NCBI GenBank assembly: GCA_039803925.1
Contig: JBDRZL010000005.1
Location: 9,969 to 73,968, forward strand
DNA from: a candidate division WOR-3 bacterium
GTDB lineage: Bacteria; Hydrothermota; Hydrothermia; Hydrothermales; JAJRUZ01
Direction of reading: 5' to 3'
Length of the DNA: 64,000 bases
In this document: positions 163 through 25,482 of the stretch, piece by piece
Layout of the letters: each line of letters starts with the position of its first letter
Numbering within the stretch: the first letter of the stretch is position 1
Made by a program: the position numbers and the translations under genes
The notes under the pieces: model-generated
Told to the model about the DNA's origin: nothing
The model's database searches: none
Seen by the model: the letters and a program-made list of their open reading frames with translations, nothing else

Positions 163-576
163 TTATAAAATTTTTTTATATCTTTTTGCAAGTTTATAAA
201 AATTTTCTTTTTTTAATTTTTTCTCAACATATTTTCTTATCTCAACCCATACGGGATGTACTGAGCATATGTTTGAAAGATTGCAGTACTTTTTTTCTAC
301 GGCGCAGATGTTCATTGCAAGAGATTTTTCAAAAATTAATATAATATCAAGGAGAGAAATTTCCTCTGGTTTCTTTGTTAAAGAATAACCTCCCTTTATA
401 CCTCTTATTGATTTCAATATTCTATTTTTTTTAAGTTTCTGGATTATCTTTGAAAGAAATTCTTTTGGAACAAGTGTTTTTTGTGATATTTCCTTTACAC
501 TATAAATTTTTTTATGATTCTGACTCATATAAAGAATTGTTCTTATCGCATAATCCGTTTCCCTTTTTATTCTCAT
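163..576 (-). CDS. Rrf2 family transcriptional regulator (IscR/NsrR-like, three Cys)
   Basis: N-terminus TDYAIRTILYMS is typical of Rrf2. Three Cys near the C-terminus are spaced as in Fe-S-binding Rrf2 members. The 137-aa length is typical for Rrf2. Confidence 0.7.
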   Translation of the reverse strand: MRIKRETDYAIRTILYMSQNHKKIYSVKEISQKTLVPKEFLSKIIQKLKKNRILKSIRGIKGGYSLTKKPEEISLLDIILIFEKSLAMNICAVEKKYCNLSNICSVHPVWVEIRKYVEKKLKKENFYKLAKRYKKIL

Positions 577-613
577 GTTTGAATTTTTAATTATAAATCA
601 CTATAATTTTTTT

Positions 614-3180: not shown

Positions 3181-4371
3181 TTAAGAAAGTAAATTGTAAT
3201 AAATTTCCTCATATTTTTTAAAAATATTTTCAAAATATACTTTTTTTATTTTTTCTTTTATATTTTTTTCCATTTCTTTTATTTTTTCTTTATTTTTTAT
3301 TGCCTTTAAAATTTTCTCTTTTATTTCATGAGTATTGAAAGGATTCTTTATTATAAAACCTTCTTTTTCATTTTCAATTATTTCAGCGCTTCCGCAAAAT
3401 TTTTTATCAGAAACAATACAGGGTGTAAGACTTTTCATGGCTTCAAACACTACTATGGGACAGGGATCATAAAGGCTCGGGAAGATAAAAAAATCTGATG
3501 CTCTATAATAAAATGAGATATTTTTTTTAAATCCTAAGAATTTTATTTTATTTTCCAAGTTTAATTTTTTTACCAGATAAGGATAAGGGGAATTTTTTTC
3601 ATTTCCAATTATTAAAAGAAAAGCTTCATCATTTAAATCTCTAAAGGCTTTAATTAAAAATTCCACCCCCTTTCTGTTTGTTTTTATATCACCTGTAAAT
3701 AGGAAAATTGTTTTATTTTTCAAAGAGGGGTATTCTTTTAAAAGTTCTTCTTTTTCTTTTTCTGATTTAAAGGGAAATTCAGATGGATTAATGCCATTAT
3801 AAATTATTTCAATTTTTGAAGGATTAACTTTTGCGAAATTGATAAGTTCTTTTTTTATTTTTTCAGAAACAGCTATTATTATTTTTGATTTCTTGTAAAT
3901 AATTTTTTCAAGAAAAGAAAAAAAAACATAATTGAAAGAGTCATAAATTTTTCTTATCAAAGGAACTTTAAAAAATTTTAAATATCTTTTGTAAACAGAA
4001 TGAACAAATTGACAGGTATTTATGTGATGATAAGTAAAAATATTTGGACCTGAAACATGAATCAGATCAAATTTTTTTCTATTTCTTAAAACAAAGATTG
4101 TTGAAAAAATAAGAAATATTAATGATTTTAAAAAAATTGGTCTTTCAACAATTCTTTTAATTCTGTGAAATTCTGCTTTTTTTTCTATGATTTCAGGATC
4201 TGCACCGAAACCAAGAAGATGAACCTCATTTCCTTTTTCTAAAAAGTGTAATGCTAAATTGTAAATAAACTTAATTTCACCATTAGAATAGTTATTAAAT
4301 TCATGGGATATAAATAGAATTTTTAATTTTTTTTTGAAATTAAAACTCAAGTCCTCCTTCTCTTGCTCCAT
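3181..4371 (-). CDS. Glycosyltransferase family 4 (GT-B, group 1)
   Basis: C-terminal GT4 signature [28 protein letters not shown] and overall GT-B layout. The start is uncertain (ATG at 4371 or TTG at 4377), and either overlaps the 3' end of rplR. Confidence 0.7.
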
Positions 4372-4717
4372 CAGCAAGTGCTTTTACTCTTCCATGGTAT
4401 TTGTAACCGGCTCTATCAAAAACAACTTTTGTAATAGAAAGTTTTTTTGCCTTTTCTGCAATTAATTTACCTACTAAAAAAGCTTTTTTAACTTTACCCT
4501 TAATGTTTTTAATTTCATCTCTTATTTCAGGTGAAAGGTCAGAGGCTCCTGTTAATACTTTTGAGGGTCCAAAAGGTGGATCAATTATAATCTGTGCATA
4601 TATATGTTTTCTTGATTTATAAACACATAATCTTGGTCTTTCAGGTGTCCCAATTACTTTTTTTCTAACTCTTTTATGTCTTCTTTTTCGTCTTAATATT
4701 TTTTCTTTTACATCCAT
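4340..4717 (-). CDS. rplR: 50S ribosomal protein L18
   Basis: [17 protein letters not shown]...[25 protein letters not shown] is the canonical L18. Confidence 0.9.
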
Positions 4718-5268
4718 TATTTTGCCGCTCCTGCTTTTCCGGGTTTGAGCCTTATTACTTCATCTAAATATCTTATACCTTTACCTTTATAAGGATCCGG
4801 TTCCCTTATTCTTCTGATTTCTGCAGCTACCTGTCCCACTTTCTGCTTATCAATTCCTTCAATTCTTATTTTTATATTTTGTCCTTCTCTTTTTACTTCT
4901 GCTTTGATTCCCTCAGGAATTATATATTTCTTGGGTTCAGCATAACCAACATCAAGTATGAGTTCCTTTCCTTTTAAATCTGCCTTATAACCAGCACCCA
5001 CGACAAGAAGTTCCTTAACGTATCCTTCTGTAACACCTTTAATCATGTTATTTATCAGTGACCTTGTTGTTCCGTGCATTGCCTTAGCAATTTTTTCATC
5101 CTTTTTTCTTTTTACCCTGATCTCTCCATCCTTTATCTCCACTTCAACACTTTCGTGTATAACTTGCTTAAGTTCTCCTTTAGGACCTTTTACTTTTAAT
5201 ATATTACCGGTTAAATTAACCTCAACACCTTTCGGTATTAAAATCGGTTTTTTCCCTATTTTACTCAT
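4717..5268 (-). CDS. rplF: 50S ribosomal protein L6
   Basis: [17 protein letters not shown]... with both L6 alpha/beta repeats. The start was trimmed to the ATG at 5268. Confidence 0.9.
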
Positions 5269-5269
5269 T

Positions 5270-5665
5270 TTACCATACCTCACATAAAAGTTCACCACCA
5301 ATTTTTAATCTTCTTGCTTCTCTGTCTGTCATTATTCCTTTTGAAGTGGACAAAATTGCAATGCCCATTCCATTATTAACCCAGGGAATATTGTCCTTTT
5401 TTACATAAATTCTCCTTCCAGGTTTTGAAACTCTTTTGACATCAGTAATTAATGGATTACCCTCTTCATCGTATTTCAATTGTATTATTAATTCTTTTTT
5501 AACACCTTCACCCTTAATTTCATAATCATTAATAAATCCTTCCCTTTTCATTAATTCCGCTACCCTTTCAAGTAATTTTGAATAACTCACTCTAACTTTA
5601 TCTTTTTTTCTCATTAGTGCATTTTTAATTCTTATAAGCATATCAGAAATGCTATCATTAACCAT
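5270..5665 (-). CDS. rpsH: 30S ribosomal protein S8
   Basis: DSISDMLIRIKNA...GIAILSTSKGIMTDREARRLKIGGELLCEVW. Confidence 0.9.
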   Translation of the reverse strand: MVNDSISDMLIRIKNALMRKKDKVRVSYSKLLERVAELMKREGFINDYEIKGEGVKKELIIQLKYDEEGNPLITDVKRVSKPGRRIYVKKDNIPWVNNGMGIAILSTSKGIMTDREARRLKIGGELLCEVW

Positions 5666-5666
5666 T

Positions 5667-5855
5667 TTACCAGCTTGCCTTTTTTACACCGGGAATTAAA
5701 CCCTGAACTGCTAATTCTCTGAAGCATATTCTGCAAATACCGAATTTCCGCAGGTATCCTCTTGGTCTTCCACAAATTTTGCATCTGTTTCTGTACCTTA
5801 CTTTAAATTTTGGTTCATACATAAGCCATCGCATAACTTTAGCCTTTCTTGCCAC
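5667..5855 (-). CDS. rpsZ: 30S ribosomal protein S14 type Z (zinc-binding)
   Basis: 61 aa with CKICGRPRG...CRICFRE (CxxC...CxxC) and a KFKVR motif. Confidence 0.9.
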
Positions 5856-6408
5856 TTTTTACCTCCTTTTTTCTTTCAAAAGGAAATCCCAGTTCCTCCA
5901 AAAGCCTTAATGCCTCATAGTCAGTTTTTGCTGTTGTTACTATTGCAATATCCATACCGAAATTTACTTTTACCTTATCTATATCTACCTCTGGGAAAAC
6001 TATATATTCCTCAAGCCCAAAATTGTAGTTTCCTCTTCCATCAAATGAATTTCTTTTTAAACCTCTAAAATCTCTTACCCTGGGTAAGGCAAATGTTATT
6101 GTTCTGTCAATGAATTCATAAGCCCTTTTTCCTCTTAATGTTACCTTAACTCCTATGGGCATTCCTTTTCTCAACTTATAGGTTGCAACGTGTTTTTTGG
6201 CTCTTCTTATACTCGGCCATTGTCCTGTAATATTAGCAACTTCCTTCTGAATTATCTCTATTAATTTTGGGTCATTTACTGCTTCACCATATCCTACATT
6301 AACAACTACTTTTTCAATTCTGGGAACTTCAAAGGGATTTTTATATTTGAATTCCTTCATTAGCTTTGGAACCACATTTTTTTTATAATGTTCAAGTAAT
6401 CTTGCCAT
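5839..6408 (-). CDS. rplE: 50S ribosomal protein L5
   Basis: [20 protein letters not shown]...[21 protein letters not shown]. The start was set to the ATG at 6408. Confidence 0.9.
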
Positions 6409-6410
6409 TT

Positions 6411-6731
6411 TCACATCTTATCAATTGTTTCATTACATTTTTTACAGTATCTCACTTTTTTTTCTCCTTCAAACCTAAATCCCACTCTTGTTTTTTTTCC
6501 ACAATTGGGGCATAAAAGTGAGACATTTGATATATGAATGGGTGCAGGCATTTCAACTATACCATGGGGCCTATCAGCACTTATAAACCTTCTATGCCTT
6601 TTTACTATATTTACACCCTCCACTATTACTCTTTCTTTTTCCGGTAAAACCTTAATAACTTTACCAATTTTCCCTCTATCGTCTCCAGATATAACCATAA
6701 CTTGGTCGCCCTTTTTGATCTTCCTTGCCAT
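6411..6731 (-). CDS. rplX: 50S ribosomal protein L24 (KOW domain) with C-terminal CxxC...CxxC zinc-ribbon variant
   Basis: [25 protein letters not shown] is a KOW domain. The C-terminal region [30 protein letters not shown] has four Cys at positions that are non-Cys in the E. coli L24 alignment. Confidence 0.85.
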
Positions 6732-7100
6732 TTACCATACCTCCGGAGCAAGAGAAACAATTTTCATAAATCTCTTTTCCCTTAGTTCTCTTGCTACTGG
6801 ACCAAAGACTCTTGTTCCCTTTGGCTCCCCACTCGGATCAATAATAACTGCTGCATTATCATCAAATCTTATTGTTGAACCATCTTTTCTGTTTATTTCT
6901 TTTTTTGTTCTAACAATTACAACCCAAACCTTTTCACCTTCCTTTATCTGTGAGCCTGTACCTATTTTTTTGACAGTTGCTCTGCATATATCTCCTACAG
7001 TGCCATATTTTCTTGAACTCCCGCCAAGAACTCTAATTACCATTACTTCAAGAGCACCTGTATTGTCAGCAACTTTAAGTCTTGATTGCTGCTGTATCAT
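6732..7100 (-). CDS. rplN: 50S ribosomal protein L14
   Basis: [16 protein letters not shown]...[11 protein letters not shown]. Confidence 0.9.
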
Positions 7101-7375
7101 TTTTCTCCTCCTTCTTCCTCAAATCCTGGTGCCCTTTCAATTATTTCAACAACTCTCCATCTTTTCAATTTTGAAAGCGGTCTTGTTTCCATAATTCTTA
7201 CCTTATCTCCTATTTTACATTCATTTTTTTCATCATGAGCATAGAATTTTTTCCTTTTCTTTATTTCTTTTTTATACAAGGGATGCCTCACCCGTCTTTC
7301 TACAAGCACAACGACGGTTTTATCCATTTTATCAGAAACAACTATACCGGTAAATTCCTTCCTTTTTCCTTTCAT
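7097..7375 (-). CDS. rpsQ: 30S ribosomal protein S17
   Basis: [29 protein letters not shown]...[21 protein letters not shown]. Confidence 0.9.
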
Positions 7376-7656: not shown

Positions 7657-8043
7657 ATGAAAACGATGAAAACGATCAGATGGGCTTTAATTTTGATTTT
7701 CAGTGGGGGATGCTTCTATTATTCCCCAGAGTCGGATCCTTATAAAATAGAAGTTCCTATTGAAGAAACTATGACTAAACCTGAGCTTCAAAAGGTTTCA
7801 CTTATGTTGGAGGTAATGGATGCAAAAACCATGCAAAATATTCCGGATGTTAAACTGGTTATACTTGGTACCCCTTTACCACCTTATACTCTTGAAAAGG
7901 GAAAGAAAGAATTAATAATTCCTCCTGGAAGATACAGATTTAAATTTTCTGCTAAAAATTATAAAGAGGTAATTAAAGAAATTAATGTTTTTCAAAATAC
8001 ATCACTTACCTTTTATCTTGAAAAAGAAGAGGTGGAAAAATGA
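7657..8043 (+). CDS. Small lipoprotein, first gene of the Tad locus (possible secretin pilotin or accessory)
   Basis: Signal peptide plus lipobox (LIFSGGC). 128 aa. Its stop overlaps the secretin start (ATGA). Confidence 0.5.
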   Translation: MKTMKTIRWALILIFSGGCFYYSPESDPYKIEVPIEETMTKPELQKVSLMLEVMDAKTMQNIPDVKLVILGTPLPPYTLEKGKKELIIPPGRYRFKFSAKNYKEVIKEINVFQNTSLTFYLEKEEVEK

Positions 8044-9338
8044 TTTTAAAACTGTTTATTGTTTCATATCTCGTATTATTTGAGGGATATTCAAAACTTT
8101 TTAAGTTTGTGAGACCCGTTAAAAGTGTTGCTATCGGCAATCCTGATATTTTGGGAATGAGACTCCTTTCTGACCGTGAGGTTTTACTGAATGCTCTGAA
8201 GGAAGGTGTAACAAATATGATTATTTTTACAGATAGAGGAACTCAGGAAATAGAATGTGTAATTAAAAAAAGAGATCCCCTCCAATTTTATAAACCTAAA
8301 ACTTTGAGGACTGATGTTTGGGTTCTTGAAGTGGAAAGAAATGTTAATTCAGATTATGGATGGGACTGGCTAAAGCAACTCGGATTTTCAGAATATAAAA
8401 TTCCAGAAACTTTTCCTCTTGATATTGGACCCATAAAGAGAACAACTAATTTATCAAGTACACTTAATTTTCTTGAGGAAAAGGGTATATTGAAAATTTT
8501 ATCAAATCCATCCCTTGTGGTTCTTGAAGACAAAACCTCAGAATTTCTGAGTGGAGGAGAGATACCTGTGGTTATAGCACAGGCACTTGGAACTGCTACT
8601 ATTGAATGGAAAGAATACGGTGTAAAACTTAAAATTTCAGGTAAACTTGATGATGAAGGTTATATAATATTAAATTTGGAACCAGAAATTTCTGATCTTG
8701 ATTATGCAAATGCTGTTACTTTTCAAGGTTATGTTATACCTGCTATAAGAAAGAATAATGCAAAAGTTGAAGTTAAACTCTTACCAGGTGAGAGTATTCT
8801 GATAGGGGGGTTAAAAAGGAAAAATGTTCAGGAATTTAGAAGTTATTTGCCAATCCTCGGTAAAATTCCTTTACTCGGGAAGCTACTATTTTCAAGGGTT
8901 ACTCGTAATGATGTTATAAAGGATGTGGTTTTTATTGTCACGCCTTATGTATTACCCTATGAAAGAGGAGCAGCACAGATTCATATTTTTAAAGGGACAA
9001 AAACAAAGGAATTTTATATTCCTACAAAAATTATTGATGGTAATACCTATTTTGAACTTTCAGATTTATTTAAAAAAGAACTTGATATATGGTATAAATG
9101 GATAGAGGAAGGAAAGTTAGCTGAAATAAATTTTGGTAAAAGAAAATCTTTTCTTTCAGTTGAAAAGTCAACTCTTGAAATAGATGGGGTTGCTTTTCCG
9201 CTTCAGCCTGAGGTGAAAATTCTTGATAAGGTTTTATTTGTTCCCTTTTCCTTTTTTGAAACAATTGGTTTATCAGGTTTCTGGGACGCTTACACAAATG
9301 ATTTCTATGTTCTTGAAACCTTGAAAGAAAAAGAGTAG
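8040..9338 (+). CDS. cpaC: Tad/Flp pilus secretin (CpaC/RcpA family) with C-terminal copper-amine-oxidase-N-like stalk domain
   Basis: N-terminal pilus-formation domain (VKSVAIGNPDILGMRLLSD...GTQEIECVI). Secretin core ending in LPILGKIPLLGKLLFSR...VVFIVTPYVL. The extra ~120-aa C-terminal domain (STLEIDGVAFPLQPEVKILDKVLFVPFSFFETIGLSGFWDAYTNDFYVLE) resembles Cu_amine_oxidN1. Confidence 0.75.
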   Translation: MILKLFIVSYLVLFEGYSKLFKFVRPVKSVAIGNPDILGMRLLSDREVLLNALKEGVTNMIIFTDRGTQEIECVIKKRDPLQFYKPKTLRTDVWVLEVERNVNSDYGWDWLKQLGFSEYKIPETFPLDIGPIKRTTNLSSTLNFLEEKGILKILSNPSLVVLEDKTSEFLSGGEIPVVIAQALGTATIEWKEYGVKLKISGKLDDEGYIILNLEPEISDLDYANAVTFQGYVIPAIRKNNAKVEVKLLPGESILIGGLKRKNVQEFRSYLPILGKIPLLGKLLFSRVTRNDVIKDVVFIVTPYVLPYERGAAQIHIFKGTKTKEFYIPTKIIDGNTYFELSDLFKKELDIWYKWIEEGKLAEINFGKRKSFLSVEKSTLEIDGVAFPLQPEVKILDKVLFVPFSFFETIGLSGFWDAYTNDFYVLETLKEKE

Positions 9339-9340: not shown

Positions 9341-11515
9341 ATGAAGAAATATGCTTTGATAGGTGCAAAGGGAGGTGTAGGTGTATCTGTTTTATCATCA
9401 CTTTTATCCTATGAAATCTCTCTGAAAAAAAAGAGTGTACTTTTAATTGAGGCAGAAAATCACGGGGATCTCCCCTACATTTTCGGATCAGATTCAAAGA
9501 AGAGTTTTAAAGAAGCCCTTGATAGTTTCAAAAAGGAGAAAAAGTTTAAAGGTGAATTTATATATGGCTATTCTTCTTATCCTTCAAAACTCCATATGAT
9601 ATTTTCTAAAACTGGTGAAATATGGGATAAAGAATATGATTTTATAGGTCCCTTATTAAAGAGAATTGAACCTGATTATGATTATGTGCTCTTTGATTGC
9701 GGGCACACCATTGATGAAAAAATTTTGAATATTCTTGATATTGTGGATCTTATTTTTGTTGTGATGAAGAATGATTTTCTATCACTTGCAAAGTCAAAGA
9801 ATTTAAGGGAAATTTTCAGATTAAGGTATTATCCTCCCCAGAAGATAGAATATGTAATAAACTTCTTTAATGAAGATGGAATTTCCTTGGAAGAAATAGA
9901 AAAGATTTTGGAAAAAGAGATTCTCTTTCTTTTGCCAGAAGATGAATCAATTTTGAGTGTAACAGAGTTTGGTTTTGATACGGGAAAAGAAAAAATTTCT
10001 CAGGTTTTTAAAGAGAAAATTAAAGAGATATCAGCTTTTATTTTAGGTGAATTAAGAAGAGAAGATTTTATGGAAAAAAGAAAGGAGGTAAAAAGAGACT
10101 TTTTAAGTGGTATTTTTAGAAGAAGGAAAAAAGAGGATAGGGATGAAAAAAAAGTAGCAGAAGTAGTGACTGAATCAAAACCAGGTGAAAGTGTTTTGGT
10201 GGAAGAAGTTGTAGAAGAGGTTCCCTATGAAGTAAAAAAGTTAATCCATGGACATATTGTTAAAGAAATGACATTATCTGGTGAACTTACAGCAACAGTA
10301 GAAAGTGCTACATATAGAGAAGAAATTAGAAAAAAGGTGGAAAAGTTAATAGTAGAAAAATTAGATGAATTTAATATTCCTTTACCATCTCAGGAAGTTA
10401 GAAAAAAATTTGTGGAGGATATGATAAAAGAAATACTCGGACTTGGCCCACTTGAAGATCTTCTCGCTGATCCTGAGGTTACTGAAATTATGGTTAATGC
10501 TCCTAATAAGATTTACATAGAAAAAGGAGGAAAAATTTATCTGACTGATAGAAGCTTTTTCAATGAAACTCAACTGAGGATGGTGATAGAAAGAATTGTT
10601 GCACCAATTGGAAGAAGAGTTGATGAGGCTTCTCCTCTATGTGATGCAAGATTACCAGATGGTTCAAGAGTAAATATAACACTTCCCCCTGTTTCTATTG
10701 ACAGTCCTACGATAACTATAAGAAAATTCAGGAAAGAACCTTTCACCTATCAGGATCTTGTTAATTTTGGTTCAATAGCAGATTTTATGGTTGATTTTTT
10801 AAAGGCTTGTGTCTATGTAAAGAAAAATATAGTTGTGGCAGGTGGAACTGGTTCAGGTAAAACAACCCTTTTAAATGTTTTATCTTCATTCATTCCTGAG
10901 GATGAAAGGATAGTTACAATTGAGGATACTGCTGAGCTAAGATTGCAGCAACCTCATATAGTAAGACTTGAAGCAAGACCACCCAACATAGAGGGAAGAG
11001 GAGAAATTACAATAAGAGATCTTGTTAGAAATGCTTTAAGAATGAGACCCGATAGGATAATAGTTGGTGAGTGTAGAGGGGGAGAAGCTCTTGATATGCT
11101 CCAGGCTATGAACACAGGTCATGAAGGCTCTCTTACAACGGTGCACGCTAACTCCCCTCGGGATACATTATACAGGCTTGAGACAATGGTTTTAATGGCT
11201 GGAACTGAGCTTCCTGTTTCAGCAATAAGAAATTACATAGCCTCAGCTATTGATTTTATAGTTTTTGTGGAAAGAATGAGAGATGGAAAAAGGAGGGTTA
11301 CAAAAATATCAGAGATTACAGGAATTGAGGGAGATATAATAACAATGCAGGATATATTTATTTTTAAACAGAAGGGAGTCTCCGAAAAAGGTGAGATAAT
11401 AGGTGAATTTATGGGGACTGGAATAAGACCAAAAGTTCACGAAGAGTTTGAAATTAAGGGTGTTAAAATTGATCAGAGTATATACTATAAAGGGAGGAAA
11501 GAGGAATCATGGTGA
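9341..11515 (+). CDS. cpaF: Fusion protein: CpaE-like ParA/MinD-fold domain with degenerate P-loop, joined to a CpaF/TadA secretion ATPase
   Basis: The N-terminal ~245 aa follows the CpaE pattern (GAKGGVGVS...YDYVLFDCGH...DLIFVVM) but has GVS where the canonical Walker A has GKT. A charged linker follows. The C-terminal ~420 aa is VirB11/CpaF-like (GGTGSGKTTLLN Walker A; IVGECRGGEALDMLQAMNTGHEGSLTTVHANSP). Confidence 0.8.
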   Translation: MKKYALIGAKGGVGVSVLSSLLSYEISLKKKSVLLIEAENHGDLPYIFGSDSKKSFKEALDSFKKEKKFKGEFIYGYSSYPSKLHMIFSKTGEIWDKEYDFIGPLLKRIEPDYDYVLFDCGHTIDEKILNILDIVDLIFVVMKNDFLSLAKSKNLREIFRLRYYPPQKIEYVINFFNEDGISLEEIEKILEKEILFLLPEDESILSVTEFGFDTGKEKISQVFKEKIKEISAFILGELRREDFMEKRKEVKRDFLSGIFRRRKKEDRDEKKVAEVVTESKPGESVLVEEVVEEVPYEVKKLIHGHIVKEMTLSGELTATVESATYREEIRKKVEKLIVEKLDEFNIPLPSQEVRKKFVEDMIKEILGLGPLEDLLADPEVTEIMVNAPNKIYIEKGGKIYLTDRSFFNETQLRMVIERIVAPIGRRVDEASPLCDARLPDGSRVNITLPPVSIDSPTITIRKFRKEPFTYQDLVNFGSIADFMVDFLKACVYVKKNIVVAGGTGSGKTTLLNVLSSFIPEDERIVTIEDTAELRLQQPHIVRLEARPPNIEGRGEITIRDLVRNALRMRPDRIIVGECRGGEALDMLQAMNTGHEGSLTTVHANSPRDTLYRLETMVLMAGTELPVSAIRNYIASAIDFIVFVERMRDGKRRVTKISEITGIEGDIITMQDIFIFKQKGVSEKGEIIGEFMGTGIRPKVHEEFEIKGVKIDQSIYYKGRKEESW

Positions 11516-12345
11516 CTTTAATTTTGATTATCCTTACAATTATAGGTGCTATTTATATTTTAATAATTTTTCTTGAAGAATTTTTTATCTATTATATAAG
11601 GAATATTCAGCAAAAACTGGATCCTGCTGATTTTCCTGTTAAAAATTTTATTTTACTCGAACTCAGACTTTTATTTGGTCTTTCCATTATTACATATCTC
11701 TTTCTAGGTAAAACTTTAGCAACTAAAATTTTTGTCATTCTTTTATTTACAGTTCTTATAATAATTTTCTTTCCTCAGTATGCTTATACGATAAGAAATA
11801 AATGGATAGAGAAATTTAATGACCAACTGGAGGAAGGGATGAGATTAATTGTGAGTGGATTGAGGGCTGGTCTTGGTTTTAATCACTGTTTGAGGATAGT
11901 GGTTCAGCAGATGCCTCCCCCAATGAAAACAGAATTTAAAAGGGTTCTTGATGAGGTCTCTCTTGGAGTACCTCTTGAAGAAGCTCTTCATCATCTGGAA
12001 GAAAGGATTCCTTCCAGAGAACTTAAAATATTTACAAGTGCGGTAATTTTGCAGAGGAAAACAGGTGGTTCTCTTGTGGATGTTCTTTCAGGTATAGCAG
12101 ATACAATAAAGGCAAGAAGAAGATTGAAGAGAAGGATAGATACACTTACTGCTGAAGGAAGGTTATCAGCTATAGTCCTTACTCTTTTACCCCTTTTTTT
12201 GTTAATTTTATTAAGAATAACACAACCAGACCTTTTTGCCCCTATGCTTGAAGAACCGATAGGTATTCTAATGCTTTTTATTGCAGCCTTCCTTGATTTA
12301 ATGGCAGCCCTTTGGATAAGAAAAATAATTACTATAGAAATATGA
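11509..12345 (+). CDS. tadB: Tad pilus inner-membrane platform protein TadB (T2SSF domain)
   Basis: T2SSF domain: GLRAGLGFNHCLRIV...ALHHLEERIPSRELKIFTSAVILQRKTGGSLVDVL. Flanking TM segments. Confidence 0.8.
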   Translation: MVTLILIILTIIGAIYILIIFLEEFFIYYIRNIQQKLDPADFPVKNFILLELRLLFGLSIITYLFLGKTLATKIFVILLFTVLIIIFFPQYAYTIRNKWIEKFNDQLEEGMRLIVSGLRAGLGFNHCLRIVVQQMPPPMKTEFKRVLDEVSLGVPLEEALHHLEERIPSRELKIFTSAVILQRKTGGSLVDVLSGIADTIKARRRLKRRIDTLTAEGRLSAIVLTLLPLFLLILLRITQPDLFAPMLEEPIGILMLFIAAFLDLMAALWIRKIITIEI

Positions 12346-13244
12346 TACTTTTAATTTTTATATTATCTTTTATTGCTTTTTATTACCTTGTTCTCGCTTT
12401 TATTCCTTCACCTGAAGAAGTGGCTTTATCTTCACGTCTCGAGAGATTAAGGAGAAGGAGGGTTAGAATTGAAATTGCCTCAAAAATTATTGCCTACCTG
12501 GCTCCCTTTGCTGAGATAATCGTTAAGATTTTAAAAAAATATTTACCAGAAGATTATTTAAATTCTCTTGAAAAGAAAATGGAAATGGCTGGAGAAAGAG
12601 GTAAATCAGTAGAAGCAGTTCTTATGGAAAAAGTAATAAGTGGTTTTGTATTTTACATTGTTTCAATTATAATAATGATACTTATTTTTAATGCACCTTT
12701 TTCTTTTAGTCTTATTATGGGATTTGTAGTTCTTTTTGCGGGATTTTTTTATAAGGATTTTAGTTTAAATCAGGAGATAAAAAGGAGACATTATTTAATA
12801 CAAAAAGATTTGGGTGATGCATTGGACCAATTAAACACCGCAGTACAAGCAGGCCTGGGATTCAATGCAGCTTTCCAGTATGTGACAGAGGCTATGCACC
12901 CATGTCCACTGAGAGAAGAATTTGCCTTAATGCTCTCTGAGCTTAGATTGGGTAAAAAAAGGACTGATGCTTTGAGAGCCCTTGCTGATAGAACTCAACA
13001 TCCGGATCTTACACTTGTTGCAATTACAATAGCCCATGGAGAAGAGCTTGGTGCCCCAATAACCCAGACATTAGCTTCTCTTGCTGATGAAGTTAGAAGG
13101 AAGAGATGGGATCAAGCAGAAGAAAGAGCTGCAAAAACCCCTGTTCTTATAGTAATACCCACTATACTTTTAATTTTACCTACCATATTTATTATAATTT
13201 TTGGCCCTTTTGTTTTATATTATCTATTCGGAGGAGGTATGTAA
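12312..13244 (+). CDS. tadC: Tad pilus inner-membrane platform protein TadC (T2SSF domain)
   Basis: DALDQLNTAVQAGLGFNAAFQYV...LRLGKKRTDALRALADRTQHPDLTLVAITIAHGEELGAPITQTL with TM helices. Confidence 0.8.
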   Translation: MDKKNNYYRNMILLIFILSFIAFYYLVLAFIPSPEEVALSSRLERLRRRRVRIEIASKIIAYLAPFAEIIVKILKKYLPEDYLNSLEKKMEMAGERGKSVEAVLMEKVISGFVFYIVSIIIMILIFNAPFSFSLIMGFVVLFAGFFYKDFSLNQEIKRRHYLIQKDLGDALDQLNTAVQAGLGFNAAFQYVTEAMHPCPLREEFALMLSELRLGKKRTDALRALADRTQHPDLTLVAITIAHGEELGAPITQTLASLADEVRRKRWDQAEERAAKTPVLIVIPTILLILPTIFIIIFGPFVLYYLFGGGM

Positions 13245-13245: not shown

Positions 13246-14019
13246 ATGAAAGGTTTTTTATTTTTTATAATACTCACAAATCAGAGCCCTGAGGAAAGGG
13301 CTGATCTTTACATAAAGCTTGCGGATTATAAAAATGCTGTAATGGAGTATTCTGATTTGATTTTTAAAAAACCTGAAGATAAAAAATTAAGAGAAAAACT
13401 CTTATTCAGTGCAAATAAATATATTGAAAAAAATTTCCTGAAAATGGATAAAGAAATTTTGGAAAAGGCTTTATCAAAGTATAGAAATGGAGAGCTTGAT
13501 TCAGCTTTATATTTATCAAAAATTTTATACGATAAATTTTATTTTGAGCCAGAAGTAGTTACTTTTTATCAAAGATGCTTATGGACAGTTGATACTCTAA
13601 GAAAACTTTATTCCCTTTTAATAGATACTGAAAGGAAAAAAGATTATCAAGCAGCCCACAGGTATGCACTGGAGATTAAAAATATTTATCCCAGTTATCC
13701 TGAAATTGATGAAAAAATAAATTATTACTTTAGTAAAATACCGAAGGTTGAGGAAAAAAGACCCCTCGTAGTTGAAAGAAGGGAGGTAGTGAAAAAACCT
13801 GTTGAAAAACCTGTTGAAGCTGAAAAGGCTATTAAGGTGGAAGAAGATGTTCAGGCAAAAGTTCAGGAACTTTATAAAAGAGGTGTTACACTTTACAGTG
13901 AGGGAAAATTAGAAGAAGCAAGGGAAATTTTTAGAGAGATACTCAAAATTGATCCTCAAAATACAAAAGTAAGGAGAAATCTTGCAGTAATAGAAGAAAG
14001 ATTAAGGGGGAGAAGATAA
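13246..14019 (+). CDS. TPR-like repeat protein (TadD-like accessory?)
   Basis: Helical repeat sequence, C-terminal TPR-like segment LYSEGKLEEAREIFREILKIDPQNTKVRRNLAV. Sits in the Tad operon. Start set to ATG 13246. Confidence 0.45.
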   Translation: MKGFLFFIILTNQSPEERADLYIKLADYKNAVMEYSDLIFKKPEDKKLREKLLFSANKYIEKNFLKMDKEILEKALSKYRNGELDSALYLSKILYDKFYFEPEVVTFYQRCLWTVDTLRKLYSLLIDTERKKDYQAAHRYALEIKNIYPSYPEIDEKINYYFSKIPKVEEKRPLVVERREVVKKPVEKPVEAEKAIKVEEDVQAKVQELYKRGVTLYSEGKLEEAREIFREILKIDPQNTKVRRNLAVIEERLRGRR

Positions 14020-15302
14020 TGGAAAGAAAAAACTTTATTATTACAGGGCTTTTTATATCTGTAATTTCTTTAGTAGTTTTATTATATTTCTTTGGAAGGT
14101 GGGTTTTAAATGAAACAAATAGATGGCTAACAAGTGATGCGGAAAATTTTTCCAATGCAGTTTTTAGTAGTCTTGTGGAAAGTATAAAAATTCCCTGGGA
14201 AACAGGAGATGAGATAAGTTTAAGTTACATTGTGTCTCGTATGAAAAGGGAAAATAGAGATATTGAAGAAATTTCAATAATTGATAGAGAAAATACTATA
14301 ATTGCCCATACAAATACCGACTATATTTTGAGCAAATTTAAATTTCCTGATGAAGCTCCCTTTGATTTAAAAGGGGTTGGTTTTTCAATAAGGAATGATA
14401 AAGTATATATATTTAAGCCCACTTTAAGCACCCTTGGTGATACTTTAGGGTATATATACTTTACATTAAAACCAAGATCTTTAAGAGAGGGAAGAGATTC
14501 TTTAAGGAGGATTCTTTTTCTTTTTGTTGTAGCACTATCTGCACTTTTCCTCTTTTTATCTGCAATACTTGTTTTTATTTCCACTCCAGTTGAGAGAAGG
14601 AAAATAATTTATGAACCCAAATATTCTGATTTCCTTTCTTATCATATTCCTGAATCTGGTGGATATAAACCAGAGGGATGGTCCCTTTATCCTTTTTATG
14701 AAAAAGGAGAAATACCAAATATTTTTTATAAAGTTTTTAGAATTTCTCCTGAAAGATGGGGAATCTTTAGTTTCCAGATAATAAGTGGTGGTTATACTTG
14801 GTCAATTTTATTTCCCTTTATAAATTCTTTTCTCGATAAATACCTTTTCACAGAGGAGGACCCTTTTGTTGTTTTGAAAAATTTACAGGATGAATTTTCA
14901 AAGCTTATGATAAATGAAGGAATTGTTGAGGGTTCTCTTTTATTTTTTGATGAAGAAAAAGGAAAGATAAGAGGAGCAAGTTTTGGTGACCATATTCTTT
15001 ATAGAAAAAGAGAAAGTGAATTAATTCCAATCTATGAACCTGCTAAATTTTATGATTTTTCAAACAGAGTATCAGAAGTAAAGTATTTTGAAACTGAAAG
15101 AGAAGACTTTTTAATTTTAGTTACTGGTAATTTTTACAGATGGTTTAGATTTAATGAACTTATTGAAAAAATTAAAGATATAAGGGATGAAGAGGATATT
15201 AAAAAAGTTATTGAAAATTTTAAATTTTTGTATGAAGAAAGTAAAATTAAAGAAGGCATTTTGCTTTTATTCTTAAAGAAAATAAAGGAGGTAGAGGGAT
15301 GA
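14019..15302 (+). CDS. Membrane-anchored sensor-like protein with degenerate PP2C/SpoIIE-type phosphatase domain
   Basis: Two TM segments flank a ~135-aa extracytoplasmic domain. The C-terminal part follows a PP2C/SpoIIE-like pattern (GIFSFQIISGGY...GASFGDHILYRK...EDFLILVTGNFYR). Start overlaps the upstream stop. Confidence 0.35.
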   Translation: MERKNFIITGLFISVISLVVLLYFFGRWVLNETNRWLTSDAENFSNAVFSSLVESIKIPWETGDEISLSYIVSRMKRENRDIEEISIIDRENTIIAHTNTDYILSKFKFPDEAPFDLKGVGFSIRNDKVYIFKPTLSTLGDTLGYIYFTLKPRSLREGRDSLRRILFLFVVALSALFLFLSAILVFISTPVERRKIIYEPKYSDFLSYHIPESGGYKPEGWSLYPFYEKGEIPNIFYKVFRISPERWGIFSFQIISGGYTWSILFPFINSFLDKYLFTEEDPFVVLKNLQDEFSKLMINEGIVEGSLLFFDEEKGKIRGASFGDHILYRKRESELIPIYEPAKFYDFSNRVSEVKYFETEREDFLILVTGNFYRWFRFNELIEKIKDIRDEEDIKKVIENFKFLYEESKIKEGILLLFLKKIKEVEG

Positions 15303-17872
15303 ATTTATTTGTCCTTTTTCTTTTGTCCCAAACTATTTCAACACTTGTAGGAGGAGATTATATAAAGTCTTTTCATTCTGGAAAATATGTATACGAGGTC
15401 TCTCAGAGGGGTGTTGCTATTATAAATGTAGAAAAACCACAGGATCCTTTTACCGAATATGAAATACCAACACAGGGAATATCCCTGGATCTTGCAATCT
15501 CAGGTAATAATCTTTATATTCTTGATTCACAGGAAGGAATTATAGTTTATTCTTTAAAAGAGAGAGTTAAGAAAAATACATTCAAAGTTAAAAATGCAAA
15601 TTCAATTATTTCAATTCCTCCTTACTTATATGTCGGGACATCTGATGGTTTTATTGAAATATACGAAGTAAATGGATTTAATTTAAAGGGAAAAGGGAAA
15701 ATTAAGTTAAATGGGCCTCTAAATTCAATTCAAATTGCTCCACAGGGATTAGTAGCACTTGTTTCTGACTCAATTTTATCTCAGATTAAATTTTTGAAAG
15801 AAGGTAACATAACCATAGGTGAAGAATATGTATCTCCATCAAAGCTTACAAAATTTTTAGTTCTTGATACCATCATTTTATTTGGTAAAAAGGAAGGAGG
15901 ATTTTACCTTGGAAAGTTTTCAAAACCTTTTATAGAAATAGTAAAGGAAATTATTCCAACCTATGTAATTACAGGCCTTCAGATCTATGGTTCCCAGGTT
16001 TTTGTGGGAACAGAGGATGGAAGGTTATATCTACTTAGTTACCCTGATTTGAATATTATTTCAACAGCCCAATTGGTTGGTCAGATTAATGATTTTGTTG
16101 CTATTGGTAATATACTTATGGCTTCGGTTGGAAGAGCTGGTATTTCTGTTTTAAGATTACCAGATCTGGAAGAAATCAAAACTCTTGGTGGTTTTGGTTC
16201 CCTTGTATCTGCCAATGTAATGACAAAGGAAGTGCTTTATCTTCTTGATCCTCTTCTTGGAGTAAGATTTATATCTTTCTTTTCTCCCCACGATCCTCAA
16301 AAAGAAGAAGAAACTGAGCTTTTTGGAACTTTTGTGAAGATTTTAAAATTTAAAGATTTGATAATAGCAGTTATAAGGGAAGGTGGAATATGGATTTTAA
16401 ATGCTGATAGAATAAATGAGATAAAAGGGTTTCTCCCAATAGAGGGTTTTATTAATGATTGTATAGACATTGAAAATAAAATTTTTGTTGCTACTGAGAA
16501 GGGTATTATTGGTCTTGAATATAAAGATGGAAAACTATCTGAAACTTTTAATATTAAGACAGATGCGAAAACTTTAAAGTTAATTCAGATTGGTAAAAAA
16601 TTTGCAAGTCTTCAGGAAAATGGTCTTTTTATTTATGATTATGATGGTAAAATCATAGAGCACAAAATGGACATCTCTCCATACTTATACACCTTAAGAG
16701 GTAGAGAGGTTTTTATATGTGATATGACTGGTAAGATTTACAAATTTGAAGAGACACTTCAAAATATGAGTTTTCTTTTTTCTATAAAAGTTCCTGTTAC
16801 TGATTTTGTTGTTGGTAAAAACGAAATATATGTTGCCGATGCAACTAATAAAATAAAAGTTTACTCAATACCCGCAAAAAATTTGAAGTTCAGTTTTGAT
16901 TTACCTGAGCCAGTTTATTATTTAAAAATGAAATATCCTTATTTATTTATCTATGGTGGAAGCGATAGAATTTTCATATATAATGTTGGGAAGGATGTTC
17001 CTGAGTTTGTAAATAGTATAAGAACGAAGAAAGGTATAAGATCACTTGATTTTTCTGAATCAGGTATTTATGTTGGGGAAGAAAGATTTATAGAAACTTA
17101 CAGATTCTATAGATTTGAAGCACCAACAGAAATCTCATATTATTTAACTTACGGAGAACTTTACAGAGCGGTGCCTTTGAAAGAAGATAATGTCCTATAT
17201 ATTGCTGGAGGTTCTTCGGGTTTAATAGGAATTGATTTAACAAATATTTATTCTCCTGAACTCTTCTTTTATCACATACCTTCAGAGGGGGTAACTTATG
17301 ATATTCTGATTTCTCAGAGGTTTTTAATCTGTGCTAACCTTGAAGGAGGAATAGAGGTTTTTGAACTTCTCTCTAATAAAAAACCTAAGTTTTTTACAAG
17401 GATTAAGGGTGATGTTCTTTCAATTGATGTAGTTAATAATACTTTTCTGGTTGCTGGAGATAGAACGGGCATTGTAAAGGTTTATGATATGCGTGGAGGT
17501 GTTTTTTCAAAGATTTCAGAATTTTCTGAGTTTAAATTTCCTGTGCTTGATCTTGAATCATTTGGAAACTATGTTTATGCCTCTTTTGGGGATGAAGGTA
17601 TAGGAATAATTGATTTAAGTGTGCCTCACTTTCCGAGATTGAAAAAAATAATAAATCCTGGTTTTCCTGTATTTAGATTAAAAATTCTCGATGATAGAGT
17701 ATTTGCAATATGTGGTGCTTATGGTATTATTGAGTATAAACTAAAAGAAGATGGAGATTTAATTTATTTAAATCATATAGATACTCCCGGAAATGCCCAA
17801 GATGTAAATAAAATGGAGGATTATTATTTAATTTCTGATACTTATGGGCTTGAAATATATAAAAGGAGGTAA
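15299..17872 (+). CDS. Large beta-propeller repeat protein (LVIVD-type repeats) embedded in Tad locus
   Basis: 857 aa. N-terminal hydrophobic segment, then at least 12 repeats of G-hydrophobic-x-hydrophobic-hydrophobic-(D/N/E/S) blades (GIIVYSLKE, GFIEIYEV, GRLYLLSYPDLN, GISVLRLPDLEEI, GIEVFELLSN, GIVKVYDMRGG, GIGIIDLSVPHFP, GIIEYKLKEDGDL). ATGA overlap with the upstream gene. Confidence 0.55.
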   Translation: MNLFVLFLLSQTISTLVGGDYIKSFHSGKYVYEVSQRGVAIINVEKPQDPFTEYEIPTQGISLDLAISGNNLYILDSQEGIIVYSLKERVKKNTFKVKNANSIISIPPYLYVGTSDGFIEIYEVNGFNLKGKGKIKLNGPLNSIQIAPQGLVALVSDSILSQIKFLKEGNITIGEEYVSPSKLTKFLVLDTIILFGKKEGGFYLGKFSKPFIEIVKEIIPTYVITGLQIYGSQVFVGTEDGRLYLLSYPDLNIISTAQLVGQINDFVAIGNILMASVGRAGISVLRLPDLEEIKTLGGFGSLVSANVMTKEVLYLLDPLLGVRFISFFSPHDPQKEEETELFGTFVKILKFKDLIIAVIREGGIWILNADRINEIKGFLPIEGFINDCIDIENKIFVATEKGIIGLEYKDGKLSETFNIKTDAKTLKLIQIGKKFASLQENGLFIYDYDGKIIEHKMDISPYLYTLRGREVFICDMTGKIYKFEETLQNMSFLFSIKVPVTDFVVGKNEIYVADATNKIKVYSIPAKNLKFSFDLPEPVYYLKMKYPYLFIYGGSDRIFIYNVGKDVPEFVNSIRTKKGIRSLDFSESGIYVGEERFIETYRFYRFEAPTEISYYLTYGELYRAVPLKEDNVLYIAGGSSGLIGIDLTNIYSPELFFYHIPSEGVTYDILISQRFLICANLEGGIEVFELLSNKKPKFFTRIKGDVLSIDVVNNTFLVAGDRTGIVKVYDMRGGVFSKISEFSEFKFPVLDLESFGNYVYASFGDEGIGIIDLSVPHFPRLKKIINPGFPVFRLKILDDRVFAICGAYGIIEYKLKEDGDLIYLNHIDTPGNAQDVNKMEDYYLISDTYGLEIYKRR

Positions 17873-17875: not shown

Positions 17876-19003
17876 ATGAGACCTAATGTAAGGAGACTTT
17901 TAATAGCTTTATCCCTGGCAGGGATAGCTGCACTTTTATTAATAAGTTATATTCAGGATGTAGAAAGGAAGACTCTAATGAAAGGTGCCCCTGAGAGAGT
18001 TCTTGTAGCAAAAAAAGATATAAGCGCAAGAACAATTATCTCAGAAGATCTTGTAGAATACAGAGAAATTCCTAAACCTTTTATAGAACCACTTGCAGTT
18101 TCAGATATAGGAGAGATTATAGGTATGGTTGCAATAACTGATATAAGAAAGGGGGAACAGATAACAAAAAATTTGCTTTTACCATTACAGACATGGACTG
18201 TTCTTTCTTCCTTTGTTCCCGAAGGTTTTAGAGCTATAACAATTCATGTGGATGAGGTTTCAGGAGTCGGAGGGTTAATACTTCCTGGAGATGAAGTAGA
18301 TGTAGTAGCAACCTTTTCTCTTGAAGATTTAAGGAGATATATTCCAGAACAGGAGCTTGAAAGATATTTAAGAAGTCCTCAACTTTACAGGGTAAGAGGA
18401 CCTTATTCTTCCTTTGCAACAATTACATATAAGGCAGTTAGAGTACTTGCAGTTGGAAGATCACTCCTTGCTTTGCCACCAACAGTTACAGAGAAAAAGA
18501 CAGGTTTTATGGGAATGCCAGAAACACAAGAATTAGAGAGGGTAACTTCAGTTACACTTGCGGTCCCAAAGGAAATTGTAAAAGAGCTTTCTCTTCTTGA
18601 GAAAATTTCAGATATAAGACTTGTTTTAAGGTCTGTGAGAGAGATAAAACTACCAGGTGAGGATACAATAATAGAAAAACCCTTAACTGTATTTGATATC
18701 TTAGAAAAATATAATCCAAAACCAAAACCTAAAAAAGTTGCGAAGGCAGCACCAACTCCAGAGGTTTCTCCTTATTCTTATATAAATATATATAAGAGAA
18801 CAGATTTGGAACAAGTAAAACTAAGAGGAAGTGAAGTAGTTGAACAAAAACCTTGGGGAGAAGGAAGAAGAAAAGGATTTGAACCTGGTCAAATTATGGA
18901 AACTTTTATGGGTTCTTATATGAAGGGAATAGAAAATGTTTTAAAGCAGGCAGGTGTTAAAGTCCCTGCTAATTTACAGGTTCCCTGCGATACCTGTTTT
19001 TGA
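17876..19003 (+). CDS. cpaB: Flp pilus assembly protein CpaB/RcpC (SAF domain)
   Basis: N-terminal TM followed by SAF-domain signature VLVAKKDISARTIISEDLVEYREIPK. Flp-pilus-assembly C-terminal domain. Confidence 0.7.
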   Translation: MRPNVRRLLIALSLAGIAALLLISYIQDVERKTLMKGAPERVLVAKKDISARTIISEDLVEYREIPKPFIEPLAVSDIGEIIGMVAITDIRKGEQITKNLLLPLQTWTVLSSFVPEGFRAITIHVDEVSGVGGLILPGDEVDVVATFSLEDLRRYIPEQELERYLRSPQLYRVRGPYSSFATITYKAVRVLAVGRSLLALPPTVTEKKTGFMGMPETQELERVTSVTLAVPKEIVKELSLLEKISDIRLVLRSVREIKLPGEDTIIEKPLTVFDILEKYNPKPKPKKVAKAAPTPEVSPYSYINIYKRTDLEQVKLRGSEVVEQKPWGEGRRKGFEPGQIMETFMGSYMKGIENVLKQAGVKVPANLQVPCDTCF

Positions 19004-20918: not shown

Positions 20919-20931
20919 AGGAGGTCTGAAT

Positions 20932-22347: not shown

Positions 22348-22358
22348 GGAGGTGTGAT

Positions 22359-23378: not shown

Positions 23379-23395
23379 ATAAAGGGGGTTTTAAA

Positions 23396-24873: not shown

Positions 24874-24916
24874 TTTTATAAAATTTATGGGGTTCAAATC
24901 CCCCCTGCCCTTTAAG

Positions 24917-25477: not shown

Positions 25478-25482
25478 TAACT

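Follow-up and report, generated by a model that had tools for sequence, protein, structure and literature searches.

A probable TadZA fusion in the Tad pilus operon of a WOR-3 bacterium

Described TadZ and TadA arrangements and the WOR-3 locus

Tesseur, Denise, Santin and Laloux have described a fusion of TadZ with TadA, designated TadZA, from Bdellovibrio bacteriovorus (2026 preprint, bioRxiv 10.64898/2026.07.08.737194), in which the TadZ part together with the linker was found to bind RomR, the ARD being absent. The same source gives K/RGGxGx[S/T] as the Walker-A-like consensus of TadZ, and the Bdellovibrio tad loci are reported there to be devoid of an A24 prepilin peptidase of their own. 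In Caulobacter crescentus, by contrast, CpaE and CpaF are separate proteins, the former carrying an N-terminal receiver-like domain and a reported amphipathic helix (PMC13170226); in the Caulobacter model, six CpaE dimers surround one CpaF hexamer, i.e. a 12:6 arrangement, with the contacts between the dimers made via the receiver (PMC13170226). Concerning CpaF, its segment NTD0 has been characterized as disordered and dispensable (PMC11300603).

The gene analysed here was found in a 64,000-nucleotide stretch of DNA from a candidate division WOR-3 bacterium (hereafter the window). What surrounds the gene in this WOR-3/'Hydrothermales' (Caldifarciminota) bacterium is a complete operon for a Tad pilus (Flp, type IVc; Table 1), with an A24 prepilin peptidase of its own, unlike the situation reported for Bdellovibrio. 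The gene very probably encodes a TadZA, i.e. a TadZ/CpaE-type domain lacking the receiver and naturally fused onto the N-terminus of CpaF/TadA. As in the Bdellovibrio protein, a single polypeptide joins TadZ without the ARD, a flexible linker and TadA, and the alignment with the fused ORF from a Bdellovibrio sp. consists of one end-to-end HSP (691 aa, 38% identity). The novelty implied by the first-pass annotation has to be abandoned, since TadZA is known from B. bacteriovorus and the fusion is frequent in databases; with the architecture common in several phyla, the WOR-3 protein is a new but ordinary member. What is gained is an extension of the TadZA architecture, so far studied in Bdellovibrio only, to the thermophile-associated candidate phylum WOR-3/Caldifarciminota, the general picture of Tad pilus function remaining unchanged. 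It should be added that the Rfam scan of the window yielded zero matches.

Table 1 Features of the tad locus and of the fusion protein; positions refer to the window
Feature	Residues (aa)	Position (nt)	Strand	Remarks
Secretin CpaC/RcpA		8040..9338	+	Pfam Secretin, T2SS-T3SS_pil_N
TadZA fusion gene (probable)		9341..11515	+	724 aa plus stop, ATG start, uninterrupted ORF
TadZ/CpaE-type MinD-like ATPase domain	1-250	9341..10090	+	Pfam, AF2, Foldseek, profile scores
Variant deviant Walker A GAKGGVGVS	8-16	9362..9388	+	Lys10 and Ser16 present; P-loop Lys replaced by Val15
Switch I E37-A-E39	37-39	9449..9457	+	D-x-D in most relatives
Walker B/switch II region YVLFDCG	115-121	9683..9703	+	D119 and G121 conserved
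Charged linker, predicted disordered	251-295	10091..10225	+	Sits where CpaF has the disordered NTD0
Basic-hydrophobic motif KRDFLSGIFRRRKK	251-264	10091..10132	+	Conserved in the WOR-3/Hydrothermales clade
CpaF NTD1, three-helix bundle	296-365	10226..10435	+	AF2 helices 296-312, 323-343, 351-365
CpaF NTD2 + CTD motor core	366-724	10436..11512	+	Pfam T2SSE, PDB CpaF, invariant catalytic columns
Platform protein TadB		11509-12345	+	Pfam T2SSF
Platform protein TadC		12312-13244	+	Pfam T2SSF
CpaB/RcpC alignment protein		17876..19003	+	Pfam RcpC, SAF
Two Flp pilin genes		20596-20769, 20766-20918	+
TadE/TadG-like pseudopilins		20902-22347, 22323-23378, 23363-24154	+
Five further Flp-type pilin genes		24703-25656	+
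A24 prepilin peptidase TadV/CpaA		25653-26198	+

The fused reading frame, its motor part and its spread

The fusion gene starts 2 nt past the stop codon of the secretin gene and overlaps the start of tadB by 7 nt, tadB and tadC following directly downstream. The earlier statement that one 724-aa ORF carries both moieties was confirmed by Pfam matches of the ParA/MinD fold and of T2SSE, the protein being divisible into the ParA/MinD-fold domain (aa 1-250), the linker (aa 251-295) and the CpaF/TadA motor (aa 296-724). That cpaE and cpaF are normally separate, as also stated, agrees with the 80 species loci scanned, about 58 of which contain separate adjacent tadZ and tadA, and about 12 true single-ORF fusions. 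Between the end of the TadZ ATPase domain encoded by such separate genes and the start of the CpaF domain there are only 100-500 nt; with the two domains so close, a single error could mimic a fusion, and a lost stop codon or a frameshift, introduced by assembly or sequencing, might in principle have merged separate tadZ and tadA here, too. The probability of such an artefact is nevertheless negligible. A comparison of the genomes of relatives revealed the same single ORF in P0001 (98% identity; 4 contigs), P0002 (83% identity), P0004 (80% identity; a 403-kb JGI contig whose synteny is identical) and P0005-P0008 (62-80% identity), as well as in more than 100 distant homologues of about 720 aa with both domains, originating from Omnitrophota, Bdellovibrionota, WOR-3 and Elusimicrobiota. 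Since the single-ORF state recurs in independent assemblies, the fusion is genuine, reflecting neither chance nor a sequencing error. Moreover, the ATPase domain begins at residue 1 without a receiver, unlike that of stand-alone TadZ, and the linker carries a motif conserved in the clade, both of which also speak against an artefact.

It should be pointed out that apparent fusions in Chloroflexota, Firmicutes, Acidobacteriota and others proved, upon parsing of the ORFs and HMM matches, to be mostly side-by-side tadZ and tadA; the false impression came from the coverage in the genome scan, where many loci seemed to match residues 2-715 of the query. In the neighbour-joining (NJ) tree of the CpaF domains, those of the fused proteins group to one side, which is suggestive only. 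The fusion marks a widespread and probably ancient lineage among the Tad motors and is not an oddity specific to predators.

The C-terminal part is a CpaF/TadA motor ATPase with an intact catalytic core. The Walker A motif GGTGSGKTT (aa 501-509; nt 10841-10867) as well as RPDRIIVGECRG and NTGHEGSLTTVHAN, all invariant in the family, are present, the regions of Walker B and of the His box being intact as well. Pfam T2SSE matches aa 367-641 with an E-value of 1.3e-63 (215 bits; cut-off 24.9), and the solved CpaF structures are matched with E-values of about 1e-126 (8rkd, 8rjf and 9e24; 7.7e-127 for 8rkd), the next family following at 9e-46. The score of the NCBIfam TadA model TIGR03819 on aa 351-657 (342.7 bits) is under its cut-off of 373.15, which does not contradict the CpaF identity because the model covers a subgroup associated with conjugal transfer. 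The CpaF from C. crescentus (8rkd) is a close homologue of the motor and shares with it NTD1, NTD2 and CTD, the helices of NTD1 being comparable to those of CpaF NTD1 (PMC11300603).

The N-terminal domain

The N-terminal domain is a MinD-like domain of the TadZ/CpaE type without the receiver. Its relation to ParA/MinD, proposed already in the first-pass annotation, was corroborated by Pfam (AAA_31 with an E-value of 2.4e-10, CbiA and BcsQ, all of the ParA/MinD fold, on aa 1-204), by the fold of the AF2 model (pLDDT 92, pTM 0.90) and by Foldseek, which with this model returned 3ea0 first and MinD next (TM 0.76-0.82). The best solved relative, 3ea0 (157 bits to the family profile; Foldseek E 4e-14, TM 0.78), is a ParA-family ATPase of 245 aa from Chlorobium tepidum; it resembles the query in that both the P-loop lysine (KGGDGGS) and the receiver domain are absent, but it stands alone, without a motor.

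The fold alone would also accommodate a generic positioning ATPase of the MinD/FlhG/ParA type, recruited independently of TadZ, in which case 'CpaE-like' would be a misnomer. With MinD, the domain shares the fold, the deviant Walker A with its signature lysine and a basic, putatively amphipathic motif soon after the domain; Foldseek and the PDB profile search gave strong MinD matches (116 bits, TM about 0.8), the matches to the NCBIfam models of BcsQ and MinD are weak, the receiver domain of canonical TadZ is missing, and ErTadZ (3fkq), the sole solved protein explicitly named TadZ, obtained only 41.6 bits with the profile of the fused N-domains, i.e. less than MinD. A generic origin is nonetheless very unlikely. 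When that profile—built from fused N-domains—was compared with TadZ defined by the operon, i.e. encoded just upstream of tadA, the TadZ proteins from about 58 loci reached 136-216 bits, against 95 for the E. coli MinD and 59 for ParA, with 177 and 148 bits for operon-defined references; the query domain alone gave 46 bits for the Paraburkholderia TadZ and 11.5 bits for MinD. ErTadZ was dropped as the yardstick of TadZ membership in favour of operon-defined TadZ: for a canonical clostridial TadZ, too, the best ParA-like match in the PDB is 3ea0, with 3fkq outside the top matches, so that 3fkq is to be seen as an outlier. A 'hypothetical protein' encoded upstream of cpaF in Salipiger, with only 49 bits on the N-domain profile, was excluded as a reference. 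In addition, the Walker A agrees with the TadZ consensus, and the annotation of the neighbouring genes revealed neither minC nor minE near the fusion gene. MinD differs from the query domain in that the catalytic lysine and aspartate residues are retained and in having MinC and MinE as partners. The encoded position fits TadZ as well, the domain preceding CpaF in frame within a complete Tad operon, and the scan of the ORFs in the window detected no ParA-like ORF besides the fusion gene.

The designation 'CpaE-like' therefore stands as far as the profile-based TadZ/CpaE type is concerned, with the difference, overlooked previously, that the N-terminal atypical receiver domain is missing. Here the protein opens directly with the ATPase domain (from residue 1-2), whereas in stand-alone TadZ that domain is preceded by a median of about 157 residues; the receiver is absent throughout the fused class.

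Walker A, switch I and the nucleotide

The P-loop lysine normally touches the beta and gamma phosphates of the nucleotide. In the query, the string GAKGGVGVS is indeed present, as read earlier, but of the claimed loss of both the P-loop lysine and the threonine only the former holds: the lysine has been replaced by Val15, while Ser16 is an allowed [S/T] residue of the motif, found in 69 of 128 fused relatives, and Lys10, the signature lysine, is likewise intact. A lysine occupies the P-loop position in 93 of 117 family members. It is missing, on the other hand, in 40 of the 62 stand-alone TadZ sampled, and the query segment AKGGVGVS (aa 9-16) agrees with the consensus K/RGGxGx[S/T]; being both common in stand-alone TadZ and compatible with the consensus, the missing lysine is to be taken as a family trait. 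The N-domains of the Bdellovibrio type that were sampled contain the full KGGVGK[ST] and the D-x-D of switch I, in contrast to the clade of the query with Val, Thr or Ala at the lysine position and Glu in switch I.

Position 39 in switch I co-varies with the P-loop lysine, so that two motif classes of TadZ can be distinguished, in which the lysine and the aspartate are retained together or gone together, both residues being absent in 22 of the fused proteins and in 34 TadZ encoded separately. Taken with the replacement of both switch I aspartates by glutamate in the query, this co-variation suggests relaxed selection on catalysis, and the domain might then be a true pseudoenzyme that does not bind the nucleotide and serves as a passive spacer or a protein–protein adaptor on the motor. 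This appears rather doubtful, however, since the degenerate class still conserves Lys10, G11, G12, G14, Ser16, Asp119, Gly121 and Asp145, which would be unexpected for an unused pocket. Furthermore, for ErTadZ, a TadZ with a variant motif, ATP binding and ATP-dependent dimerisation together with low ATPase activity have been reported, as far as can be judged from the papers citing the original study. The description 'catalytically dead' is accordingly plausible for hydrolysis and has to be limited to it, because domains of the ErTadZ type reportedly bind ATP and dimerise. By analogy with ErTadZ—as conveyed by those citing papers, and a distant relative at 41.6 bits—the N-terminal domain of the query may bind ATP without the P-loop lysine.

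The linker and a proposed working of the protein

The linker, described previously as Lys/Glu-rich and about 60 aa long, measures about 45 aa between the domain boundaries (51% K/R/D/E; family median length 42 aa) and about 65 aa with the flanking charged helices counted, the previous estimate being approximately right; the AF2 pLDDT is below 50 across aa 251-292. Its sequence is unrelated to that of the Bdellovibrio type, where L[AS]KLKKP[ST]G is found in place of the KRDFLSGIFRRRKK and subsequent K/E-rich stretch of the query. The motif KRDFLSGIFRRRKK spans 6-19 residues past the domain end and is similar both to the motifs that close the C-terminal tails of many stand-alone TadZ and to the MinD MTS. 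With regard to Caulobacter CpaE, whose ATPase domain is homologous to that of the query, the motif is positioned where CpaE has its amphipathic helix. Judged by pattern and position, aa 251-264 thus resemble the C-terminal amphipathic membrane-targeting helix of MinD/CpaE, the role being putative. The Eisenberg hydrophobic moment, 0.55 for KRDFLSGIFRRRKK and 0.27 for the authentic MTS of the E. coli MinD, is non-discriminating, because the real MTS scores under the query motif and under many buried helices. The two co-varying motif classes, the receiver-less fused class and the MinD/CpaE-like motif inside the linker of the clade offer small testable points.

Returning to the reading of the protein as TadZA, its TadZ module would not be a working ATPase; by analogy with CpaE and with ErTadZ, the latter as portrayed in the citing literature, it may act as a nucleotide-binding, dimerising and membrane-proximal scaffold that would bring the hexameric motor to the TadB/TadC platform and stabilise it there, possibly assisted by the MinD/CpaE-like basic-hydrophobic motif. 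The covalent fusion would set a 1:1 stoichiometry of TadZ and motor, the flexible tether of about 45 residues presumably substituting for the disordered NTD0 of CpaF. Since a 6:6 fusion without the receiver cannot give the 12:6 arrangement of Caulobacter with its separate proteins, the ring architecture may differ. With the receiver domain absent, any polar or landmark targeting would require a different partner, comparable to RomR in the case of Bdellovibrio TadZA, for which alone that interaction has been demonstrated. The AF2 model of the full-length protein (pTM 0.53) contains no confident arrangement between the N-domain and the motor.

A more specific version, put forward here quite tentatively, is that TadZ of the WOR-3/Hydrothermales clade has become a hydrolysis-dead, membrane-tethered clamp, one per motor subunit, with aa 251-264 as the surviving former C-terminal helix, making the Tad motor self-positioning. 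If so, the receiver-less 1:1 stoichiometry would replace both the 12-subunit outer ring of CpaE and the landmark-dependent targeting, the pair Lys15/Asp39 having been lost together.

One gene for the TadZ-type and CpaF-type domains

The fusion gene starts 2 nt past the stop codon of the secretin gene, and its 3' end overlaps the start of tadB by 7 nt. Its product matches the ParA/MinD-type families of Pfam at residues 1-204 (AAA_31 with 2.4e-10, CbiA and BcsQ) and T2SSE at residues 367-641 (1.3e-63), the top NCBIfam model being TadA TIGR03819 (residues 351-657). The first-pass annotation, reporting a single 724-codon ORF with both domain sets and the motif GAKGGVGVS, found at residues 8-16, thus described the sequence correctly, and the CpaE/TadZ-CpaF fusion it recognised is real. 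The same single gene is present in proteins sharing 98, 83, 80, 80, 77, 62 and 62% identity with the query, coming from the NCBI, JGI and Logan assemblies, the nearest of them being annotated as candidate division WOR-3 (98%) and 'Candidatus Hydrothermales' (83%), a synonym of Caldifarciminales. One 80% relative (L086), on a 403-kb JGI contig, matches the query locus in gene order on either side (ribosomal-protein genes, secretin, tadB/tadC), with one 725-aa gene between secretin and tadB/tadC. Beyond the WOR-3/Hydrothermales clade, ~110 of the best 120 database clusters are ~715-750-aa proteins with both domain sets. A frameshift, against which a check had been advised, is therefore excluded as the origin of the fusion by the single gene in independent assemblies, the conserved gene order and the distant clusters.

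The segments of the full-length AF2 model (pLDDT 81; see the table) match the layout published for CpaF, i.e. a disordered, dispensable NTD0 followed by a three-helix NTD1 (PMC11300603), the linker being predicted to occupy the place of NTD0. The motor part aligns with Caulobacter CpaF structures (E 7.7e-127), and its catalytic motifs are retained as columns that do not vary across the family alignment.

Features of the fusion protein and of its genomic surroundings
Feature	Window position	Residues	Remark
Subtilase with dockerin and downstream protein	575-3177		
Ribosomal-protein cluster	3181-7375 (-)		
Small lipoprotein	7657		First in Tad operon order
Secretin CpaC	8040		Directly before fusion gene
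Fusion gene	9341..11515 (+)	724 codons	One ORF, ATG start
N-domain		1-250	AF2, well folded
Disordered segment		251-292	AF2, pLDDT <50
Motif KRDFLSGIFRRRKK	10091-10132	251-264	First 14 linker residues, directly after TadZ-like domain
Three helices		296-365	AF2
NTD2 + CTD core		366-724	AF2
TadB	11509		Directly after fusion gene
TadC	12312		
TPR protein	13201		
Membrane protein	14019-15302	427 aa	No Pfam matches
Beta-propeller protein (LVIVD/WD40-like)	15299-17872	857 aa	
CpaB/RcpC	17876		
Polytopic membrane protein	19000-20538	512 aa	No Pfam matches
Two Flp pilins	20596, 20766 (20596-20918)		Upstream of tadE/tadG
TadE/TadG-like pseudopilins	20902-24154		
Five further Flp pilins	24703-25656		Tandem
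A24 prepilin peptidase	25653		Last in Tad operon order
M4/M36 metalloprotease	26285-29260	991 aa	Directly downstream of Tad locus

Identity of the N-domain and its Walker A motif

The AF2 model of residues 1-255 is confident (pLDDT 92, pTM 0.90) and its top Foldseek match is 3ea0, a stand-alone ParA-family ATPase from Chlorobium tepidum with the Walker A KGGDGGS, followed by MinD structures (TM 0.76-0.82). A1, a profile built from 18 diverse fused N-domains, gave the following scores against PDB sequences: 157 bits for 3ea0, 116 for archaeal MinD, ~100 for FlhG, ~80 for FleN and 41.6 for ErTadZ (3fkq). Since the ErTadZ score would argue against a TadZ-like domain, the TadZ references were chosen by gene context. 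With the fused N-domain profile, 136-216 bits are reached in ~58 of 80 species-representative genomes by the gene lying immediately before tadA, and the 'AAA family ATPase' encoded immediately upstream of cpaF scores 177 bits on a Paraburkholderia plasmid and 148 bits on a Pseudarthrobacter plasmid, as compared with 95 bits for E. coli MinD and 59 for one plasmid ParA. The query N-domain alone gives 46 bits to TadZ versus 11.5 to MinD. ErTadZ is an outlier, because a canonical clostridial TadZ also has 3ea0, not 3fkq, as its top ParA-like PDB match. Judged from these comparisons, the N-domain is of the TadZ/CpaE type, in agreement with its first designation as CpaE-like. What had escaped notice is the absence of the atypical receiver domain: context-defined stand-alone TadZ carry ~135-200 residues (the receiver domain) ahead of the ATPase domain, whereas in the fused proteins the latter begins at residue 1-30.

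Concerning the Walker A motif, the query keeps the signature Lys10, Gly11, Gly12, Gly14 and Ser16, as well as Asp119, Gly121 and Asp145, with Val15 at the P-loop Lys position and E37-A-E39 in place of D-x-D in switch I. Of the two residues claimed as lost, the Lys is indeed missing; the Thr should not be counted, since Ser is the commoner residue there among the fused relatives (69/128). The P-loop Lys is present in 102/128 fused proteins and 22/62 stand-alone TadZ. In the sampled set (homologues P0001-P0120 and genome loci L006-L085), combining it with the second switch I Asp divides the fused proteins into 102 with both, 22 with neither and four mixed, the corresponding numbers for stand-alone TadZ being 18, 34 and 10. 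By these motifs, TadZ ATPase domains form two classes, in which both residues are kept or lost jointly, and the query falls in the degenerate one, the majority state of ordinary TadZ. Its Walker A also fits the TadZ consensus K/RGGxGx[S/T] given in the work on Bdellovibrio (bioRxiv 10.64898/2026.07.08.737194); the supposedly dead motif is thus a normal TadZ variant. Literature summaries credit ErTadZ, whose motif is a similar variant, with ATP binding, ATP-mediated dimerisation and a low ATPase activity. By analogy, the term 'pseudo-ATPase' may reasonably be retained as regards a loss of hydrolysis, but not if it is meant to imply a loss of nucleotide binding.

Linker, known relatives and origin of the fusion

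The query linker has 45 residues, 51% of them charged, and is K/E-rich within the WOR-3/Hydrothermales clade; family-wide, its median length is 42 aa and its sequence is not conserved. The basic-hydrophobic KRDFLSGIFRRRKK is conserved in this clade and the nearest fused relatives, while the remaining linker drifts. Similar C-terminal tails (e.g. KKQYFRKLFG, VVNRLFNF, RKLFSIFSG, GGWLSRLFE) are found on many stand-alone TadZ, their spacing from the domain end being equal to that of the membrane-targeting helix KKGFLKRLFGG of MinD, and a C-terminal amphipathic helix has also been reported for Caulobacter CpaE (PMC13170226). KRDFLSGIFRRRKK resembles both these tails and the amphipathic membrane helix at the C-terminus of MinD/CpaE, and probably represents what was once the end of TadZ, now inside the fusion; as the hydrophobic-moment calculation was not discriminating, its binding to the membrane is put forward as a hypothesis. 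The conserved linker motifs of other fused lineages differ, being [EQ]FW[QE]K (Omnitrophota-type) and L[AS]KLKKP[ST]G (Bdellovibrio-type).

The TadZA fusion is already known and widespread; the query adds a member from a phylum that has received little study, and the comparative details that are new are minor ones. An 'atypical TadZA fusion ATPase' without the receiver domain—an architecture shared by the query—has been described in Bdellovibrio bacteriovorus, with a prior mention of the fusion being cited and the TadZ+linker fragment being necessary and sufficient for binding the polarity hub RomR (bioRxiv 10.64898/2026.07.08.737194). The fused ORF of a Bdellovibrio sp. aligns end to end with the query (38% identity over 691 aa). 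In Caulobacter cryo-tomography, six CpaE dimers, linked by their receiver domains, surround the CpaF hexamer (PMC13170226), an arrangement that a receiver-less 1:1 fusion would be unable to copy exactly.

Parsing 80 genome loci (species-representative genomes) at the ORF level revealed true fusions in Bdellovibrionota (L007, L008, L010, L025, L046), Omnitrophota (L013, L016), WOR-3 (L009), Elusimicrobiales (L043) and two unclassified MAGs (L006, L017). The seeming full-length matches in many other phyla were rejected as separate genes side by side. In a neighbour-joining tree of the CpaF domains—a crude method—in 95/100 bootstrap replicates the sister group of the query clade consists solely of fused proteins, and one clade holds 64 of the 73 unfused CpaF, every fused protein lying on the other side. 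This topology suggests that the fusion arose in one or a few old events.

The Tad/Flp locus and its neighbourhood

The fusion gene sits within a complete Tad/Flp pilus operon. The N-domain profile found no other ParA/MinD-like ORF within the 64-kb window (G+C 31%), so that the fused domain is the sole TadZ/CpaE candidate of the locus. Three operon genes, i.e. those for the beta-propeller and the two Pfam-less membrane proteins, are without a clear Tad counterpart; their positions are the same in L086. The locus contains seven Flp-type pilin genes; the product of 24703-24873 is identical to that of the 3' part of 25047-25313, an indication that duplication occurred recently.

Of the ribosomal-protein cluster (S17, L14, L24, L5, S14 type Z, S8, L6, L18), both ends are truncated: L18 is followed by a GT4 glycosyltransferase in the usual place of S5, L30, L15 and SecY, and the start of the divergent Tad operon lies upstream of S17, in that of L29, L16 and S3. 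L086 exhibits the same arrangement. It also conserves the subtilase with a dockerin domain and the following protein with a weak cohesin-domain match, their domains suggesting a cohesin-dockerin-anchored protease pair. The metalloprotease next to the Tad locus is a secreted, thermolysin/fungalysin-type enzyme with a NIDO-like domain.
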